In this document: positions 23,964 to 60,096 of the stretch, piece by piece
How positions within the stretch are numbered: the first letter of the stretch is position 1
Layout: every line of letters begins with the position of its first letter
Origin: Octopus vulgaris
Lineage: Eukaryota
Length of the DNA: 64,000 nt
Direction of reading: 5' to 3'
NCBI GenBank assembly: GCA_951406725.2
Contig: OX597833.1
Span: 17,918,001-17,982,000 of the forward strand
Program-made: the position numbers and the translations under genes
The notes under the pieces: generated by a model
Databases searched by the model: none
Told to the model about the DNA's origin: nothing
The model's input: the letters and a program-made list of their open reading frames with translations, nothing else

Positions 23964-24217
23964 AATAAAAAAATTAATGCGCCCTTTTAAAGCCTAGCCA
24001 GGCCCATGGGCTCGGTTTACCGGTTTCTATGGCGTATGTGCTCCCCAGCTGGACGGGACGTCAGTCCATCGCAGCGTCACTCACAGCTGAGTGGACTGGA
24101 GCAACGTGAAATGAAGTGTTTTGCTCAAGAACACAACGCGTCGCCCGGTCCAGGAATCGAAACCACAATCTTACGATCATGATGCTAACACCCTAACCAC
24201 TAAGCCACGCGCCTCCA
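23964..24217 (-). mobile_element. SINE head C + V-like tail, 14-bp TSD
   Basis: TSD CATATTATGGAGAA at 23950-23963 and 24218-24231; A-box TGGCTTAGTGG and B-box TTCGATTCC on the minus strand. Confidence 0.9.
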
Positions 24218-24324
24218 CATATTATGGAGAACCATCATGGTAATGAACCAGGATCTACAGTTTGGTGCGGCTTATCATTAAAAGGATTAACTCAGTGTTT
24301 CTCAACCAGTAACTTACCACACAG

Positions 24325-24848
24325 AGCACTATGACTATATGACTCGGAAGGAACTTTACTTGGTTAAGACATGTAAAAGATGCACATTTTCCAATAAAGA
24401 TTATTTAAACGGGTAAGGCTGTGTTTGAATTAAATGGATCAATTAACTGCCAAAATTGCAAATACTGGTGGCCGAGAATCCACATATTATGGAGAAAATA
24501 AAAAAAATAATGCGCCCTTTTAAAGCCTAGCCAGGCCCATGGGCTCGGTTTACCGGTTTCTATGGCGTATGTGCTCCCCAGCTGGACGGGACGTCAGTCC
24601 ATCGCAGCGTCACTCATTTGCCAGCTGAGTGGACTGGAGCAACGTGAAATGAAGTGTTTTGCTCAAGAACACAACGCGTCGCCCGGTCCAGGAATCGAAA
24701 CCACAATCTTACGATCATGATGCTAACACCCTAACCACTAAGCCACGCGCCTCCACATATTATGGAGAACCATCATGGTAATGAACCAGGATCTACAGTT
24801 TGGTGCGGCTTATCATTAAAAGGATTAACTCAGTGTTTCTCAACCAGT
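24325..24848 (+). repeat. ~523-bp tandem duplication of 23789-24310, including a second SINE C (24497-24755)
   Basis: Near-identical sequence in both copies; 14-nt linker AACTTACCACACAG. Confidence 0.93.
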
Positions 24849-29429: not shown

Positions 29430-29503
29430 TATAATCACCCCATTTTGAATTATATGGATAATACCATACTGGTGCCTTTAACTTAAGTACCATATTCATT
29501 TGA

Positions 29504-29573
<70 letters not shown>

Positions 29574-29594
29574 ATATATATATATATATACATA

Positions 29595-30885
29595 CGAGGG
29601 GCGTTCAATAAGTAATGCTCCTGACCCACTTCCCATAGCAGTAGAGCAACGAAACTTGGCACAGGTATTAGTCTTTTTCAGCATAGGAACAACCCAGAGT
29701 TACTCATTTCTCCCATCGTTTGATACAGCTCTGGAGACCGTTTTCATAGAAGACCCCAGCTTGGTCCTCCAACCACGACGTGACTTCAGAAATCAAGGCT
29801 GCATCATCTGGGAAACGCTTTCCTTTCAAAAACAACTTCATGGCTGGGAAGAGGTGAAAATCAGAGGGTGCAAGGTCAAGAGAGTAGGGGGATGGGGGAA
29901 GTGTTCATAGCCGCACGCCTGTGCTTCTGATCTGGCGACACGCGAGTTGTGGACCGGAGCGTTGTCCTGCAGGAGGAGGATGCCTTTGGTGATCTTGCCC
30001 CGCCTCTTGATTTTGATAGCTTCTCTTAATTTCCTCAAAAGTGAAGCATGATAGGCTCCTGTAATTGTGGTACCCGTTGCCAGGAAATCTGTCATCACTA
30101 CTCCGTCCTGGTCCCAGAAGACTGTGAGCATGACCTTGCCAGCGGAGGGCTGCACCCTTGCCTTCTTTGGAGGAGGTGAGTCATTGGGGCTTCCACTGCA
30201 TTGACTGGGCTTTGGTCTCTGGATCATGGTGAAAGACCCAGGTCTCATCCTGTGTAATCAGTCTTTTGAAAAATTTTGACTCATCTTCTTGGTACATCCC
30301 TAAATTCATCCTCGAGCACTCGACGCGTTCTTGCTTCAGGAAAAGTGTGAGCAACCTGGGAATCCCTCTGGCAGACACTTTGCATATGCAAATGGTCATG
30401 AATGATAGTTTCCACAGACCCGGTACTAATCTTGACCTCATGGGCTATTTGGCGAATAGTTATGCGTCCATCTTCCAAAATAGCAGCCTCAACTTGACGG
30501 ACAGATGCCTCATCAATGGCAGAAGGGGTGCGACCAGATCTGGGAGCTGTTTCCACAGAGTTCCGACCATGTTTGAATTCACGATGCCAGCGTATTACAA
30601 GGTCATATGATGGGGCATCATCACCATAAGTTATTTTCATTTCATCAAAAGTTTCCTGTGGTGTGCGTCATTTCAAATACAAAAACCGGATCACTTCTCG
30701 ACACTCAACAGGCTCCATTTCCCACTTGACTCATTTCAAACACATGTAAATCAGAAACCACTATTAGTTCGGAGCTGTAATTTGCCACTTAATCTATAGA
30801 GATATAAATAATTACACATGCAAAATCTCAGCTAGATCAATCAAAAGCAAGTGGGTCAGAGGCATTACTTATTGAACGCCCCTCG
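29595..30885 (-). mobile_element. Full-length mariner DNA transposon (1291 bp), irritans-like termini
   Basis: 37-bp TIRs CGAGGGGCGTTCAATAAGTAATGC..CTGACCCACTT (2 mismatches) at 29595-29631 and 30849-30885; TA TSD on both sides. Confidence 0.96.
29668..30718 (-). pseudogene. Mariner transposase pseudogene (D,D34D)
   Basis: MEPVECREVIRFLYLK*...PRSGR...VSARGIPRLL...ITQDETWV...KVMLTVFWD...LQDNAPVH...YSLDLAPSDFHLF; about three frameshifts and two in-frame stops. Confidence 0.93.
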
Positions 30886-33459: not shown

Positions 33460-34178
33460 TGACTATGGGATTGCACCTAGAAAGTTCCCCTTCGGGGCAT
33501 ACCAGCTTTCCCTCTCCACACCATTATATGTACATAGGGTAATGAGTAAAGACCCCCTTCGGTCATGAATGACCGTGGAGTTTCGTCTAGAAGGTTACCT
33601 TCCGAGGTACAAGTCCGGGTAAGATTGTTTGTGGAAGACCAGCAGTCGCCCATGCTTACCAGACTCCCCTATCCACATAATCATATGTACATAGGGTAAA
33701 GACCCCTTTTGGTCATGAATGACCATGTGATTGCATCTGGAAAGTTCCCCTCTGAGGTACAAGTCCGGGCAAGGTTGCTTATGGAAGACCAGCAGTCGCC
33801 CATGCACACCAGCCTCTCCTCTCCACACCATTATATGTGCACAGGGTAATGAGTAAAGACCCCCTTCGGTCATGAATGACTATAGGATTGCACCCAGAAA
33901 GTTCCCCTCCAAGGTACAAGTCCGGTCAAGGCTGTTTATGGAAGACCATCTTACAAGCCTCCCTTCTCCACACCACCGATGTTGTCCGAGGGACAGGCAA
34001 AGGCCGATACAGCTCGGCACCAGTGACGTCACAATTCATTTCTACAGCTGGGTGAACTGGAACAACATGAAATAAAGTGTCTTGCTCAAGAACACAACAC
34101 TTTTCCCGGTCCGGGATTCGAACTCACTCCTGCGTGATTGTGAGCCCGACGCTCTAACCACTGAGCCATGCGCCTTCA
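33460..34178 (-). mobile_element. SINE head C + tail E, with the tail and flank tandemly amplified (four units)
   Basis: GACCCC.T.GGTCATGAATGAC recurs at 33551, 33701 and 33858 (periods 150 and 157); head ends at 34178. Confidence 0.88.
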
Positions 34179-34247
34179 CAAATTTCGAGGGAACGCAAAC
34201 TAATTCTTGCTTAGGGATATCGAAGGAATATCCCAAGATGATGTAAT

Positions 34248-34642
34248 ACTCTTTTATTCTTTTATGTCATTTGACCGCGGCCATGCTGGAGCAACGCCTT
34301 TAGTCGAGCAAATCGACCCCAGGACTTATTCTTTGGAAGCTTAGTACTTATTCTATCGGTCTCTTTTGCTGAATCGCTAAGTTACGTGGACATAAACACA
34401 CCAGCATCGGTTGTCAAACGATGTTGGGGGGACAAACACAGACACACAAACATACACACACACACACATATATATACATATATACGACGGGCTTCATTCA
34501 GTTTCCGTCTACCAAATCCACTCACAAGGCTTTGATCGGCCCGAGGCTATAGTAGAAGACACTTGCCCAAGGTGCCACGCAGTGGGACTGAACCCGGAAC
34601 CATGTGGTTGGTAATCAAGCTACTTACCACACAGCCACTCCT
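34248..34642 (-). mobile_element. SINE family A
   Basis: Reverse complement similarity over the full length. Confidence 0.9.
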
Positions 34643-34789
34643 ATATATATTACATCATTTATACATGCATTATATTATACATATGTGTGTATATGTATAT
34701 ACTAGCTATATTTCACACACACACACACACGCATATATATGCGTGTGTGTATATATATATATATATATACTCACATACATATACACGCT

Positions 34790-37817: not shown

Positions 37818-38124
37818 GTGGAGGCGCACGGCTCAGTGGTTAGAGTGTCGAGCTTACGATCGTGAGGTTGTGAGTTCGAATCCTGGACCGGGCTACGTGT
37901 TGTGTTCTTGAGCAAGACACTTTATTTCAAGTTGCTCCAGTTCATTCAGCTGCAGAAATGAGTTGCCTTTCTCTTGGAATAACATCGGTGGCGTGGAGAG
38001 GGGAGGCCGGTATGCATGGGCGGCTGCTGGTCATCCATAAACAACCTTGCCCGGACTTGTGCCTCGGAGGGTAACTTTCTAGGTGCAATCCCATGGTCAG
38101 TCATGACAGAAGGGGAATGTCTCA
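37818..38124 (+). mobile_element. SINE head C + tail E with TSD
   Basis: A-box CGGCTCAGTGG, B-box GTTCGAATCC; TSD GGACATTTTAT at 37807-37817 and 38127-38137. Confidence 0.9.
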
Positions 38125-50965: not shown

Positions 50966-51612
50966 TATATATTACGATATTTAAAATGCTACACTAAACG
51001 CAAAACAGAAATGGTTGTCAATTCGTGCAAGTGGCATTGTTCTTATTTTATACGGGGTGACCCGTCTACCAAATTCACTCGCTAGGAATTGGTCGGTTCA
51101 AGGCAATAATATAAGATACTTGCACAAGGTGCTGCAAGGTGGGATTGAACCCCGAAGAGCGAATTTTTTAACCACAGAGCCATGCCTACGCACAAATGAA
51201 TAAAGGTCTTTAGGTAGTAATTCACAAAATAAAATCACTGGCAAGTCGCAGAAAAAATCGTTTATTCAGTTTCATTTTCATTTCTTTCTCTTTATTTGCT
51301 TCCACTTATTTAATTACAATTTTTTTTATGTATCCCGGGAGGGTCTTTATGACACTAATAAACACACACACACGTACATACACACAGTCGCGGGTTCTAT
51401 ATCACTTTCGTATTATTTTATTCGTCAACTGGTTAACTATTCAACCAGTTAACTAATCGACTATTTGATTAATCGTTCCGTCAAAAAATCAATCGGTTCG
51501 GTTTGCGATCTGTGAATGTCTTTTCATCGTAATTCACAGCTTTATCAATGACGTCCCTTCTCGAATGTAGGTGAGCTTCAGAACTATTTGTCTCTTGGTT
51601 TTTGTTTCTTTA

Positions 51613-51613
<1 letters not shown>

Positions 51614-51663
<50 letters not shown>

Positions 51664-51675
51664 TACTATTAGTAC

Positions 51676-51723
<48 letters not shown>

Positions 51724-51763
51724 TACTATTATTATTATTATTATCATTATTATTATTATTATC

Positions 51764-51831
<68 letters not shown>

Positions 51832-51876
51832 TGTTATTACTATTACTATTATTATTATTATTACTATTATTATTAG

Positions 51877-51910
<34 letters not shown>

Positions 51911-52102
51911 TATTATTACTATTATTATTATTACTATTATTATTATTATTATTACTATTACTATTATTATTATTACTATTATTAGTATTATTACTGTTAT
52001 TATTATTATTATTACTACTATTATTATTATTATTACTATTATTATTACTATTATTATTATTACTATTATTATTATAACTATTACTATTATTAGTATTATT
52101 AC

Positions 52103-52147
<45 letters not shown>

Positions 52148-52285
52148 TACTGTTATTACTATTACTATTACTATTATTATTATTATTACTATTATTATTA
52201 CTGTTATTATTACTATTATTATTATTACTATTATTATTATTACTATTACTATTATTATTATTATTACTATTATTAGTATTATTAC

Positions 52286-52317
<32 letters not shown>

Positions 52318-52455
52318 CTATTATTATTATTATTACTATTATTATTACTATTATTATTACTATTATTATTATTATTACTATTATTATTATAACTATTACT
52401 ATTATTAGTATTATTACTGTTATTATTATTATTATTATTACTATTACTATTACTA

Positions 52456-52486
<31 letters not shown>

Positions 52487-52516
52487 TATTATTATTATTA
52501 CTATTACAATTATTAC

Positions 52517-52556
<40 letters not shown>

Positions 52557-52577
52557 TGTTGTTGTTGTTGTTGTTGT
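51614..52577. repeat. ~950-bp (ATT/ACT)n trinucleotide array with higher-order variants
   Basis: Directly visible; the 339-aa ORF here is an artefact. Confidence 0.97.
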
Positions 52578-53112
52578 ATATTTATGGAGTTGTATGGACG
52601 TGAGTAAAGATGTATACGAGACGTGGAGGGAAAGAGAGAGAAAAGAATAAAAAGAGCGTGTGTACTTTCATTGAAAAAAAAAATGTTTTTTATTCTCGGA
52701 TATCAAACGACTTCACTGAGAGTAAAATTATTTTATTTTGTATTTCATTTTCCAACGACCCCCTTTCAGCTTTTTATGGTTTACAAATGGATACTTTGAA
52801 TTTTGAACAAAAAAATGATCAGTTTTTTAATTTTGTAAATTGTGCCTTTTACCCAGGTAACTTCGTTTAGTTGGGAGTGTGCACGCATCCATATACGCTC
52901 ATATAAATAAAAATACATACACGTATGCAAACATTTATGTATATACCTGTGCATCAATATTGCATGTACATGTGTGTAAATGTATACATATCGATATATA
53001 TATATATACCGGAGTAAACACATAAATGTGAAACAAGGTGGAAAAAAGAGTTCTCAAATACCAGAGGTAGAGTAATATGCTTTATTTAAAGTAGCAGAAA
53101 ATTCAACAAAAC

Positions 53113-54299: not shown

Positions 54300-54620
54300 T
54301 CTTTTAGTTATTTCAGTCATTGGACTGCGGCCATACTGGAGCATCGCCTTGAAGGGTTTAGCAGAACAAATTGACGTCAATAATTATTAATTCTTTTTAA
54401 GCCTGGTACTTATTTTATCAGTCTTGTTTATTTGTCGTTGAACCGCTAAGTGGTGAGGGGTACAAACAGACACAAAGGTACACATACACAGGTCTACCAA
54501 ATCCACTCACAAGGCTTTGGTTTGGTCAGCCCGAGGCTATAATATAAGACACTCACCAACGGTGCCACGCAGTGGGACTGAACCTGGAACCATGCGGTTG
54601 AAAAGCAAGCTTTTTCCGCC
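54300..54620 (-). mobile_element. SINE family A, diverged
   Basis: Tail and head recognisable. Confidence 0.8.
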
Positions 54621-54699: not shown

Positions 54700-55250
54700 A
54701 GTAGGGTCTAAACGTAGACAGGAGAAACAAGGACAGACAAAGGGATTAAGTCGATTACATCGACCCTAGTGTGTAACTGGTACTTATTTAATCGACCCCG
54801 AAAGGATGAAAGGCAAAGTCGACCTCGGCGGAATTTGAACTCAGAACGTAACGGCAGACGAAATACCTATTTCTTTACTATCCACAAGGGTCTAAACACA
54901 GAGAGGACAAACAAGGACAGACAAACGGATTAAGTCGTTTACATCGACCCTAGTGTGTAACTGGTACTTAATTTATCGACCGCGAAAGGATGAAAGGCAA
55001 AGTCGACCTCGGCGGAATTTGAACTCAGAACGTAACGGCAGACGAAATACCTATTTCTTTACTGCCCACAAGGGGCTAAACACAGAGAGGATAAACAAGG
55101 ACAGACAGACGGAGTAAGTCGATTGTATAAGACCCCAGTGCGTAACTGGTACTTATTTAATCGACCCCGAAAGGATGAAAGGCAAAGTCGACCTCGGCGG
55201 AATTTGAACTCAGAACGTAGCGGCAAACGAAATACCGCTGAGCATTTCGC
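54700..55250 (-). mobile_element. SINE B trimer (184-bp period)
   Basis: Junction GAAATACCTATTTC at 54860 and 55044. Confidence 0.92.
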
Positions 55251-56043
55251 CTCCTTTTAGCTTTTAGACTAGGTTAGCTTCTGTGGAATGTCCGCTATAT
55301 CAGTATCATTGTGAAGGATGCTGTATATATCGATCACTGAGCCGATGGATAGAAATTAATCCGATGCTTTTTTTTGTTGTTTGTTTGTTCGTTCTTTTTA
55401 CAAATGAATAGAAAACTAGGATATGTTTTTTTGTTTTTTAATCGGTGGCTCTTTAGTTATTAACAAAAGACCTCATGCAGCTCCGCTGTTGTTATTGCTC
55501 TTGAGAGACAATGTTTACTGCTGGGAACATTTCAGCTGATTTATTGTTTTGTTAGTGTTTCCGTTTCTGATGAGTGTTTTTTCTCTCTCTTGGGAGTCTA
55601 CATGATCTTTGTTTGTGGATCCCGATGGGTTGCTGCTAGCACATATGGGAATAACAACGTTTACGAATAGCTGCAAAGGCAGTTTGATATCAGAGGTATT
55701 AAGAGTGAAAGGACCAATTAACAAACAATAAGTCGCTTGTAATTGCACTCCGGTTTCCTTTATGTGGGTCCATGTTGCTAAATGGCGGCGCTGGAGTCAG
55801 TGACTTTTGGCCTTGTTGTTGCACATTGATAGGCGATGCTATAAAATATGATGTGGACTAAAAGAAGAATTTTTTGCTTGTGACATTATGAACAACGCAA
55901 GAGCCAGCGATGGGTTAACCGTTAAGCAAAATAAGCACGTTCTTAGGGCCTCAAGGGGAAAATGTCACCACAGAAATGGTAAATGGTCTACAGTACAAAA
56001 GAAATCACTTTAAACTCGCTAAAATAATATTTGAAGTGGTATT

Positions 56044-56450
56044 AGGCGCAGGAGTGGCTGTGTGGTAAGTAGCTTGTTTACTAACCACATGGTTCCGGGT
56101 TCAGTCCCACTGCGTGGCACCTTGGGCAAGTGTCTTCTACTATAGCCTCGGGCTGACCAAAGCCTTGTGAGTGGATTTGGTAGACGGAAACTGAAAGAAG
56201 CCCGTCGTATATATGTATACATATATGTATGTGTGCGTATGTGTGTCTGTGTTTGTCCCATCCAATAACGCTTGACAACCGATGCTGGTGTGTTTATGTC
56301 CCCGTCACTTAGCGGCTCGGCAAAAGAAAGAATAAGTACTGGGCTTACAAAGAATAAGTCCCGGGGTCGAGTTGGTCGATTAAAAGGCGGTGCTCCAGCA
56401 TGGCCGCAGTCAAATGACTGAAACAAGTAAAAGAGAAAAAAAAAAAGAGA
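56044..56450 (+). mobile_element. SINE family A, full length
   Basis: AGGCGCAGGAGTGGCTGTGTGG head to GAAACAAGTAAAAGAG tail. Confidence 0.93.
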
Positions 56451-56672
56451 ATATGATCGGAAATATAATATAACTTCGAAGTGTTCTTGGTGTCATAGTA
56501 AGGATCTGACCAAAGACTTTGCAATTAAAAAAAAAGTAGAAAACTTTTCAAATATAAATAAAGTGGAAATATACAAAAACAAACATTATTTGCCATCTCG
56601 CTGTTTATTATTTACATTATTTACATTCGACAGATATTATGTCCTCATTTGTCCTCATCTTGTTTGTTGTTA

Positions 56673-56716
56673 ACACAACGTTTCGGCTGATATACCCTCC
56701 AGCCTTCTTTAGGTGT
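56673..56716 (-). ncRNA. Hammerhead motif, left arm (core mutated to CUAAAGA)
   Basis: ACAC-CUAAAGA-A-GGCUG(10 nt)CAGCC-GAA-ACGU-U-GUGU. Confidence 0.55.
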
Positions 56717-56779
56717 GTTGGGGAAATTTCGAATCTGGGTTCTCATTCCTAAGGTATTTTTTCGATGTTATTATTATTA

Positions 56780-56832
<53 letters not shown>

Positions 56833-56969
56833 GTTATTGTTGTTGTTGTTGTTCATGTCACTTCTTGGAATCGAACTCGGAATCTTGGGGTTAGTAGCCC
56901 GCGCTCTTAACCACTACGCCATATGCCCGTGGACACAGGAATGAGAACCCAGGTTCGAAATTTCTCCAA

Positions 56970-57015
56970 GACACTTGAAGAAGGCTGGAGGGTATATCAG
57001 CAGAAACGTAGTGTT
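56970..57015 (+). ncRNA. Hammerhead motif, right arm (core UUGAAGA)
   Basis: GACAC-UUGAAGA-A-GGCUG(10 nt)CAGCA-GAA-ACGU-A-GUGUU; the two arms together reconstruct the canonical CUGAAGA core. Confidence 0.6.
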
Positions 57016-57927
57016 AACAACAAACAAGATGAGGACAAATATTCGTCGAATGTAAATAATGTAAATAATATACATAAATCCTCATCTCTTAAATATAGAA
57101 CTGTGTGGTTTATTATTTTTGAAATTTTTAATTATATATATATATGGAGGCATCAACATCTTTTAAGTGTTTAGAGCCTTTACGGGTTTTAATCCCACCC
57201 TTATGAGAGTGTTTGTTCAATACCTTTGTGAAAACACCTTTGTCGTGTCTCAGTGACATACGCACGGGTTGAAACAGGATGAAAAATAAAATTATTTCTA
57301 CATTTGAAAAGTGTGTCTGCTGCTGTTTTATCCGAAATTGAGATGCAATCATCAAAGAGAAGGTTGAAGTCGCCCATCTGTTACGAAAACTGCGTTGCTG
57401 GATGAAAAGGGTAATCGTTTGGAGTCACTCTTGGAAACAGAGTAGAGATGCTTGACGAGATCTGTAGCGTTCGATTATAGATAGGTCATTGGTTTTATTG
57501 TATCGGAACCTTGATTCGCGACAACCATTGGAAAATATGTCATTTGCATCGGCGATAAGGGAATCGTGGGCGGAAATAGCAAATTATCTCATTCATTGGC
57601 CTGCGCTATCCCCTCAGATGTTGGCAAAATCTCAAAATTTCACCACGGCTTTTCCTTGAAAGCAATTGTTAGAATACGGTTAGAATAATGAAAGGTATTG
57701 GGTTTAGCTCATGGGTAAATCTAGTCTTTGATGTATGTAATTTTTCCATTTTGAGCCTGAAGGCTTCAACATTTGGTAGGATTGCCGTTGCTAAGATAGC
57801 TATTTCATTGTGCCGCCTCAAACGCCGTTAACTGTCCTCGTTTCTGCTTAGTGGCGGTGCGGGGGGTATTTCTTACACTGGAGTTAAGTAGAAGTTGTAA
57901 ACATACACATGCCTACATAACTACACA

Positions 57928-58981: not shown

Positions 58982-59048
<67 letters not shown>

Positions 59049-59211
59049 CGACGGGCTTCTTTCAGTTTCCGTCTACCAAATCCACTCCCAAGGCTTTGGT
59101 CGGCCCGAGGCTATAGTAGAAGACACTTTCCCAAGGTGCCACGCAGTGGAACTGAACCCGGAACCATGTGGTTGGTAAGCAAGCTACTTACAACAGAGCC
59201 ACTCGTGCGCC
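58779..59211 (-). mobile_element. SINE family A, full length
   Basis: Reverse complement of consensus. Confidence 0.92.
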
Positions 59212-59614
59212 AATCTCATATCATTTTATTTTTAGGAATTTTCAGAAAAAGTTTGAGAATTTGTGTTCTATGCACGCGAATTTATGCCACTATGCAAAAA
59301 ATTTGTTTTTTAATTTTTTAATCCCCACTCCTCATATATCCTAAAATTTCAACTCTTTTTTTTTCTTACACATACATGCACACTCGTTTGGTGCGGGGTG
59401 GGGATGGGTTTAAGAATTCAAATTACACAGAAAAGTTATTTTTCATTTGCTTTAATCCCAACGATGGACCAACCTTGGTGCATCAGCATTCCATTAAATG
59501 TGCATATGGGGAGATAATTTAAGTACCAGTTGAATACTGGGGTCGATCTAATCGACTGTCCCCTTCCCTAAAAATTTCGGCCCTTGTGCTTAGAGTAGAA
59601 AAGAATAATAAAAA

Positions 59615-60060
59615 TGATGGGCTACGGCAAATATTCTGCTCAATACCACAGATTTGCTTGTCTGTTGTTTGACCTTAACCTGTTGAGTATGTCCCTTAGT
59701 AGCTGACGATATGTGCATCTCTGATCACGAGCAGAAGTAGAGGATCTTCATAGCCACGTGTTGAGAGGGATTCTTTGGGGTTTGAATAATTCACCTTTGG
59801 AAACATGGGTGTTTCGTTCAACATCCATAAACAACCCTTATTCAGGGATCTTTTTGAGCGGGGTGGGCTACTCGACCAGAAGAAAATTCTAACTGGGCCC
59901 CACCTACAAGGTCATGCACTGTTAATCTAGATTTGAGATCACCATGTCGCGCACATATGGTTGTGATGCATATGCTTGGTGTACCCTTATCAGACGGGTG
60001 GCAGTGATGGATATATTTTACCCCAGTGTCACTTTGACGGCATGCATTACTCTCTCACTC
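59615..60060. other. Complex non-coding segment bounded by AAT repeats; probable retroposon-derived repeat
   Basis: GC-richer than flanks, sharp boundaries at AATAATAA and (AAT)n, no ORF; only one copy in the window. Confidence 0.35.

Positions 60061-60096
<36 letters not shown>

Follow-up and report, generated by a model that had tools for sequence, protein, structure and literature searches.

A decayed end-piece of an abundant protein-coding PLE lies at positions 56606 to 57103 of the window, by which we mean the whole stretch of 64,000 nucleotides of Octopus vulgaris DNA that was analysed. We favour reading it as a solo pseudo-LTR (pLTR) of an autonomous PLE with a SINE-like head, likely copied from an RNA that started at this head and was probably made by Pol III. 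The architecture itself, a pLTR of an autonomous PLE with the head built in, is close to certain. The original prediction had seen here a composite unit, with a tRNA-like Pol III head between two outward-facing hammerhead arms. The parts of the insertion are as follows, the boxes and ribozymes being placed from the sequence itself.

56606 to 57103, no single strand: whole insertion, made up of the solo pseudo-LTR from a Penelope/Poseidon-type PLE and a 5'-truncated copy in inverted orientation
56852 to 56935, minus strand: tRNA-SINE-like head, spanning -7 to about +77 of the family, with +1 at 56928
56911 to 56921, minus strand: A box
56867 to 56876, minus strand: B box, 45 nt from A box start to B box start
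56768 to 56851, minus strand: (AAC)n(AAT)n spacer
56606 to 56765, minus strand: direct (left) arm, the 5' start of the PLE ORF, with ATG at 56746 and without the tail
56672 to 56717, minus strand: minimal type I hammerhead of the left arm (motif type as in PMC4209133)
56937 to 57103, plus strand: inverted (right) arm, with ATG at 56941 and 54 open codons matching the PLE N-terminus
56970 to 57015, plus strand: minimal type I hammerhead of the right arm
57072 to 57103, plus strand: 32-nt PLE tail, on the right arm only, ending at the second 3'-end site (tail type as in PMC8557442 and PMC11167929)

The window head opens with a short imperfect palindrome, its homology to the family begins at 56935, and the spacing of its two boxes is that of a tRNA gene. 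The spacer that follows differs in length among copies and is often the target of other insertions. Every part described earlier on the minus strand was found, namely the A/B-box head, the (AAC)/(AAT)n and the left arm, and a ribozyme motif is present on each arm, the right one on the plus strand, both with core mutations. The predicted extent of 56606 to 57070 is correct at its start; the insertion reaches 57103, because the right arm has the extra 32-nt tail. The left arm stops at the first 3'-end site, and the right arm is joined to the head via one extra base, 56936. Inverted to each other, the arms match over 104 nt at 93% in one self-comparison and over 149 nt at 86% in another. As had been expected, the head lacks a TSD of its own: for the insertion or its head, only a 4-nt chance match was seen. 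The two outward arms are the usual structure of PLEs, for which inverted 5' copies and a one-sided tail of 30-40 nt are standard traits in the sections consulted of PMC8557442. Since Rfam (gathering and E-value modes) gave no usable hammerhead or tRNA match for the window copy and ARAGORN, also when relaxed, no usable tRNA call, the head and hammerhead assignments rest on motif anatomy and comparison.

The parent element and the origin of its head

The head, (AAT)n and arm recur as a genomic unit, as had been proposed: the arm lies 3' of the head in 25 of the 29 loci from the head search and in 23 of 30 position-sampled heads. The genome searched comprises 2.8 Gb in 227 contigs, in which a 21-mer from the head has 3681 exact matches and a 21-mer from the ribozyme 5231, with none for either reversed control, numbers well beyond those of chance. 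An exact word match is found in only 3-5 of 30 loci in samples not chosen by those words, and the true copy number is therefore roughly 2-4 x 10^4, which is a rough estimate. An inverted arm is present upstream of the head in 19 of 30 position-sampled loci; the units are mostly single or inverted, with occasional partial direct duplicates (60 position-sampled loci). With copies in the order of 10^4 by this rough estimate, the family is prone to be mis-annotated as a SINE or a MITE in the octopus genome.

A coding sequence for RT and a GIY-YIG-like domain stands directly upstream of several head copies. Among the ORF-search loci, the head comes right after the stop of the RT/GIY-YIG ORF in 29 of 30, the exception (L065) being interrupted; with a 44%-identical foreign protein as the query, it follows the stop in 25 of the 26 loci with an ORF end, which partly overlap the 30. 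The order is thus RT/GIY-YIG ORF, stop, an 18-nt linker, head, (AAT)n, and then the ATG, hammerhead and tail. In full-length copies the arm reads from the ATG through the ribozyme and tail, in frame, into the ORF. At 20 of 30 loci it adjoins the 5' region of the ORF in the sense orientation, and in two loci (L151, L152) the same sequence is found at both ORF ends, as a (partial) tandem pLTR. Because the arm sits 5' of the ORF, in frame, and the head follows the stop, the head, (AAT)n and arm together make up the pLTR. A homolog (P0003, 55%) has the same PDxG...PKR N-terminus overlapping the ribozyme. Mobilisation by a PLE is borne out; the notion of a SINE that had borrowed a PLE terminus is abandoned, since the autonomous PLE itself has the head as a constant component. 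All 32 of the 32 checked loci belong to this same family, with no sister PLE family lacking the head among them.

The parent ORF matches RVT_1 (E 2.4e-10), and its protein has 2923 homologs. Its C-terminal GIY-YIG domain is a putative one, based on motifs and on PF01541 in 3 of 120 listed homologs, with no direct Pfam match to GIY-YIG in the ORF itself. The features expected of an EN+ PLE are found, namely an ORF with RT and C-terminal GIY-YIG, a tandem pLTR and a minimal type I hammerhead, as well as the optional 30-40-nt tail and the inverted 5' copy. Domain order and similarity, rather than a tree, would place the element in the Penelope/Poseidon clade. Family copies are ~77-90% alike, and the longest natural frame noted has 569 open codons (L086). 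The PLE family looks extinct or nearly so, because no intact full-length ORF was seen among the best-scored matches.

The similarity of the head to host SINEs is best explained by capture of a SINE head along with its (AAT)n tail. The PLE head aligns to the SINE head at window 56045-56125 with a score of 60, which none of 2000 shuffles reach; other related SINE heads in the window score 60-67, and a less clear comparison with another gives 53, reached by 2 of 2000 shuffles. In both the A and B boxes, the commonest letters across copies agree with the consensus. A host-type SINE head would have inserted once between the stop codon and the ATG, and would then have been kept. No SINE body or LINE-type tail follows the PLE head. 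A free parent SINE was not seen among 30 position-sampled heads, of which the 10 read out have an interrupted (AAT)n and no common other body. For control PLEs, taken from 80 metagenome loci, the head was present in 0 of the 23 pLTRs with a recognisable ribozyme, by a pattern that could miss diverged heads, and the single head-pattern match among the control loci lay inside an ORF. A tRNA-like segment was also noted upstream of a PLE ORF match on an unrelated metagenome contig (L206:2465-2539), far from any ribozyme found; it is likely an independent SINE.

The window and the family hold several other repeats. An abundant tRNA-derived SINE whose head is related to that of the PLE occupies window 56045-56420, 59026-59211, 54492-54611 and 34530-34660; we take it to be of the OK type, and the octopus SINEs compared with the PLE head presumably go by the names OK and OR. 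Further SINE heads that are tRNA-like and have A/B boxes lie at window ~24130-24260, ~24650-24780, ~34100-34220 and ~37820-37920. The first two are near-identical and share their upstream flank, which suggests a local duplication of ~520 nt behind them, near 24.1-24.8 kb. An abundant repeat of ~570 nt, whose 5' end varies and whose 3' end is (AAT)n, is found at window 59609-60079 and repeatedly inserted in the (AAT)n of the family (L002, L028, L033, L043, L046, L053, L059, L168); it probably represents the 3' terminus of a LINE that targets AAT, or else the SINE of such a LINE. A ~570-nt segment between the (AAT)n and the arm was rejected as a part of the unit, for its 5' end varies and it occurs without the head. 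Coding fragments also lie inside the (AAT)n (L068:301-1353 on the minus strand, L083, L144 and L148), one of them with a zf-RVT match, and we take these to be LINEs of the R4/Dong type. The window further contains three tandem copies of a 184-nt unit (54703-55255), a compound (ATT/ACT/GTT)n microsatellite array of ~1.1 kb (51550-52700) and, on the minus strand, transposase fragments (29482-30257) which are presumably mariner-like, judging by WVPH/D,D34D-type wording in their translations.

The start of the RNA

A Pol III promoter had been predicted in the head, and a start there is the likeliest reading, given A and B boxes at tRNA spacing and a 5' step in the genomic copies; we consider it reasonably likely. 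Set against the 3681 exact matches of the head 21-mer, words at the ORF end (~60 nt upstream), at -169 and at -873 have 953, 820 and 171. The step at the head is ~4-fold raw and ~10-fold after a match-rate correction that is approximate, the ORF words having been chosen from the same copies. The 5' boundary seen most often is -7/-6. It precedes the A box by 13-14 nt, the distance expected for the start at a type 2 Pol III promoter. Because of the raw step, and because the linker is reached by only 3 of 30 position-sampled heads (3 of 38 in a second sample), the copies suggest that transcription begins at the head, probably by Pol III, with a start that would lie near position -6. Some full-length copies start in the head (L281, L286, L295). 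At least 2-3 others extend upstream into a preceding ORF (L305, L308, L291), so some RNAs or tandems were not started at the head.

It is also conceivable, although rather unlikely, that the architecture is the same and the head a passive passenger. Transcription would then be by Pol II, from a pLTR initiator or by read-through, and the pile of 5' ends would come from RT stalling or fold-back. The partial tandems that reach upstream agree with this, and an imperfect palindrome at head -7..+5 coincides with the 5' step. Fold-back junctions are seen in 5 of 38 position-sampled heads and in 19 of 56 heads from the head/arm search, and 16 of 26 starts have AT instead of the linker's TT at -8/-7, as an inverted head would give. 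Fold-back at the palindrome could therefore make the step without a promoter, but copies without an inverted part start at the head too (e.g. L099, L111, L124, L143). The step, moreover, precedes a textbook A box by 7-14 nt, both boxes fit the consensus in their commonest letters, and an extra 5' G, as the copy of a cap, is not common at the starts, which argues weakly against a capped RNA. The literature leans to Pol II: the D. virilis Penelope has a TATA-less, LINE-like internal promoter inside its pLTR (PMC2377424, in the part consulted), and Kojima argues in the consulted part of PMC10886601 that autonomous elements must use Pol II.

RNA from three raw runs and one contig set, aligned to a natural copy, is non-directional and dominated by embedded copies. 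Its depth climbs from the ORF to the head to the arm, equally on both strands, and 77-79% of the reads continue into unrelated sequence. The loose ends of the reads accumulate where the head begins and at the two 3' sites, which repeats the genomic boundaries rather than revealing a promoter, and no RNA start pile was called at the head in the three non-directional runs.

A start by Pol III at the head could be extended further, in that the captured tRNA-type promoter would drive an uncapped RNA of ~2.8 kb across the whole RT/GIY-YIG ORF, purged of TTTT; this we regard as unlikely. If true, it would make the ~10-fold excess of short copies a first-pLTR by-product of a Pol III-driven element, and it would contradict the rule, as stated, that an autonomous retrotransposon is transcribed by Pol II. 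No TTTT is shared among copies of the 2.5-kb ORF, which is a weak hint (P ~0.01-0.07). The 64 natural segments counted (87,176 nt) contain 37 T4 runs, none of them fixed, as against ~187 expected from base composition, and 0 T5 runs as against 43. Counted by columns, T4 is found 0 times with 4.5 expected in 2521 columns and T3 is normal (13 versus 16), which gives P ~0.01 under independence and, by a hand calculation, ~0.07 given the T3 count. In the control PLE ORFs (76 of 80, four short matches having been dropped), T4 stands at 479 versus 326 expected, ~1.5 times expectation. The argument is weakened by synonymous shuffles within copies, which expect only 0.2-3 T4 per frame, and by G4, which is likewise ~2-fold low, with Y-Y-C codons being preferred in general. 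Five of the 76 control ORFs are without any T4 across 0.9-1.7 kb, and the N-terminal copies hold 8 runs of T4 or longer (4 of them T5 or longer) in 16,365 nt, with no site common to more than 3 of 30. The T4 shortage is thus only a weak hint that Pol III could read through the ORF. Three control PLE ORFs (L210, L201, L226) are without sense-strand TTTT over 1.1-1.7 kb, with no head detected.

Ribozymes, 3' ends and short copies

Both window hammerheads are of the minimal type I with a palindromic helix III, ACGU, which is the PLE type in the consulted sections of PMC4209133. The left ribozyme, with its cleavage position after 56677, carries G5>A at 56710 and is predicted to be dead. The right one is predicted to be impaired, as it has C3>U (56975) and C11.1>A (57002), the latter breaking the G10.1-C11.1 pair, together with a GUA triplet. 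Elsewhere in the family, stems I and II fold in one copy (L004), and the core, stem II and GUH are all kept in 18 of 62 copies, which are thereby predicted ribozymes.

The proposal that the ribozyme defines the 3' end is not supported by the copies. Among 73 arm ends at position-sampled loci, 40 fall at arm 136-158 and another 25 at 176-182, while the remaining 8 are scattered and 0 of the 73 fall at the cleavage position, 89; the two sites that take 65 of the 73 ends lie ~50-95 nt beyond the ribozyme. In Anolis Poseidon, according to the parts consulted of PMC11167929, RT begins at two internal sites, one on each side of the tail; mutating the ribozyme leaves insertion unaffected, and RNA ends at the ribozyme were not seen. 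With two PLE-type 3' sites as in Anolis Poseidon, and none at the ribozyme, we therefore reject an end defined by the ribozyme. The latter would not set the inserted end, and its activity likely depends on a dimer or on protein.

By the mechanism we propose, the PLE protein would nick AT-rich DNA and prime internally at either site, as shown for Anolis Poseidon. A cDNA primed in the first pLTR would run off at the 5' end of the RNA and give a unit of ~300 nt, priming in the downstream pLTR would yield 5'-truncated ORF copies, and a template switch, aided by the palindrome at the 5' end of the head, would add the inverted copy. The sharp 5' step and the two 3' sites together support, at the genomic level, that RT primes internally on an RNA begun in the pLTR, and such priming accounts for the origin of solo pLTRs.

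The original prediction had also seen the unit as a SINE-like element. The short unit might indeed be an independent SINE-like family, with solo copies that are transcribed by Pol III and moved in trans by the PLE, which we hold to be improbable. Short copies do exceed ORF-linked ones ~4-10 fold; the unit has a predicted promoter, and flanking T-runs could end its transcript. There is a precedent in the Sm-alpha of Schistosoma (PMC6765202 and PMC2770079, each consulted in part). But the head is integral to the autonomous element, and the short copies have no private variants and do not end at the ribozyme. No difference in frequency between the ORF-linked copies (47) and the short ones (78) is seen at any of the 11 common variants (p 0.16-0.84, in a small test of modest power), and none of the 11 common positions has a variant private to the short copies. 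As both kinds of copies share all 11, there is no sign of a separate SINE lineage, rare active solo copies being compatible with so small a test. Head divergence is 6.5% in the short and 8.5% in the ORF-linked copies, the short ones having been partly chosen by exact words. The RNA of Anolis Poseidon must reach ORF +172, beyond the second priming site (PMC11167929, in the part consulted), and a solo copy that ends at the tail would, by analogy only, lack this sequence. The unit does have the 5' head of a tRNA-derived SINE, with A and B boxes at tRNA spacing; a SINE would be a non-autonomous lineage with a head absent from its partner, and here the head is in the autonomous element.

The possibility that a SINE head landed by chance between the TIR-like arms of a MITE is negligible and was rejected, for although the arms of the single window copy resemble terminal inverted repeats, the unit recurs genome-wide with its head after the ORF stop, the inverted parts differ in length between copies, the arm is coding PLE sequence, and a TSD is absent.

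Comparison with known systems

The octopus element resembles the Penelope/Poseidon PLEs, such as D. virilis Penelope and Anolis Poseidon PAc, in most respects given in the consulted sections of PMC8557442 and PMC11167929: an ORF of ~840 aa with RT and C-terminal GIY-YIG, a pLTR with a minimal type I hammerhead overlapping the ORF start, a 30-40-nt tail at one end and two 3'-end sites, and an inverted 5' copy with heavy 5' truncation. It differs from them in that its pLTR has a tRNA-SINE-like A/B-box head and (AAT)n. A PLE with a tRNA or Pol III head was not found in the literature, as far as the sources were covered, and no such element is mentioned in the consulted parts of two octopus repeat papers (PMC13282606, PMC8967140); Repbase, Dfam and supplements, including the repeat libraries of PMC13282606, may hold the family. 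In the papers found so far, and in the portions of them consulted, a tRNA-like promoter head is described only for non-coding elements, and its presence within the terminal repeat of a protein-coding PLE is unusual.

Among these non-coding elements are the TRIMp3 (Cassandra, Helenus, Ajax), which likewise have a terminal repeat with a small-RNA-derived Pol III promoter. As described in the consulted part of PMC10886601, this promoter has a proposed origin in SINE insertion; the elements are non-autonomous LTR elements of <1.3 kb with PBS/PPT and TSDs, and their autonomous partners are stated to have to use Pol II. The octopus carrier is, in contrast, an autonomous protein-coding PLE: an ORF is present and no TSD was found, where TRIMp3 have LTRs with PBS/PPT, a 4-5-bp TSD and no ORF.

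The repeats Sm-alpha and Sj-alpha of Schistosoma also combine a tRNA-related repeat with a type I hammerhead, and are transcribed by Pol III (PMC6765202, PMC2770079, in the parts consulted). Sm-alpha forms tandems that are cut into monomers by a canonical ribozyme, whereas the octopus copies are dispersed, their ends are not marked by the ribozyme, which is of the minimal PLE type, and their parent ORF is identified. The animal non-LTR retrozymes are likewise short units with type I hammerheads, related to PLE pLTRs, and in the consulted parts of two papers (PMC7229834; bioRxiv 10.64898/2026.07.22.740005) they are defined by head-to-tail tandems of at least two ribozyme units and by circular RNA, with no mention of a tRNA head. 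The octopus units, mostly single or inverted, form no regular head-to-tail tandems, and with none of the 73 genomic arm ends at the cleavage site, the earlier idea of a SINE/retrozyme hybrid does not hold. The element nevertheless links PLE pseudo-LTRs, tRNA-SINE heads and hammerhead repeats, which are usually kept apart, and offers a natural path from an autonomous PLE to short elements of the Sm-alpha or retrozyme kind, with the parent ORF still identifiable.
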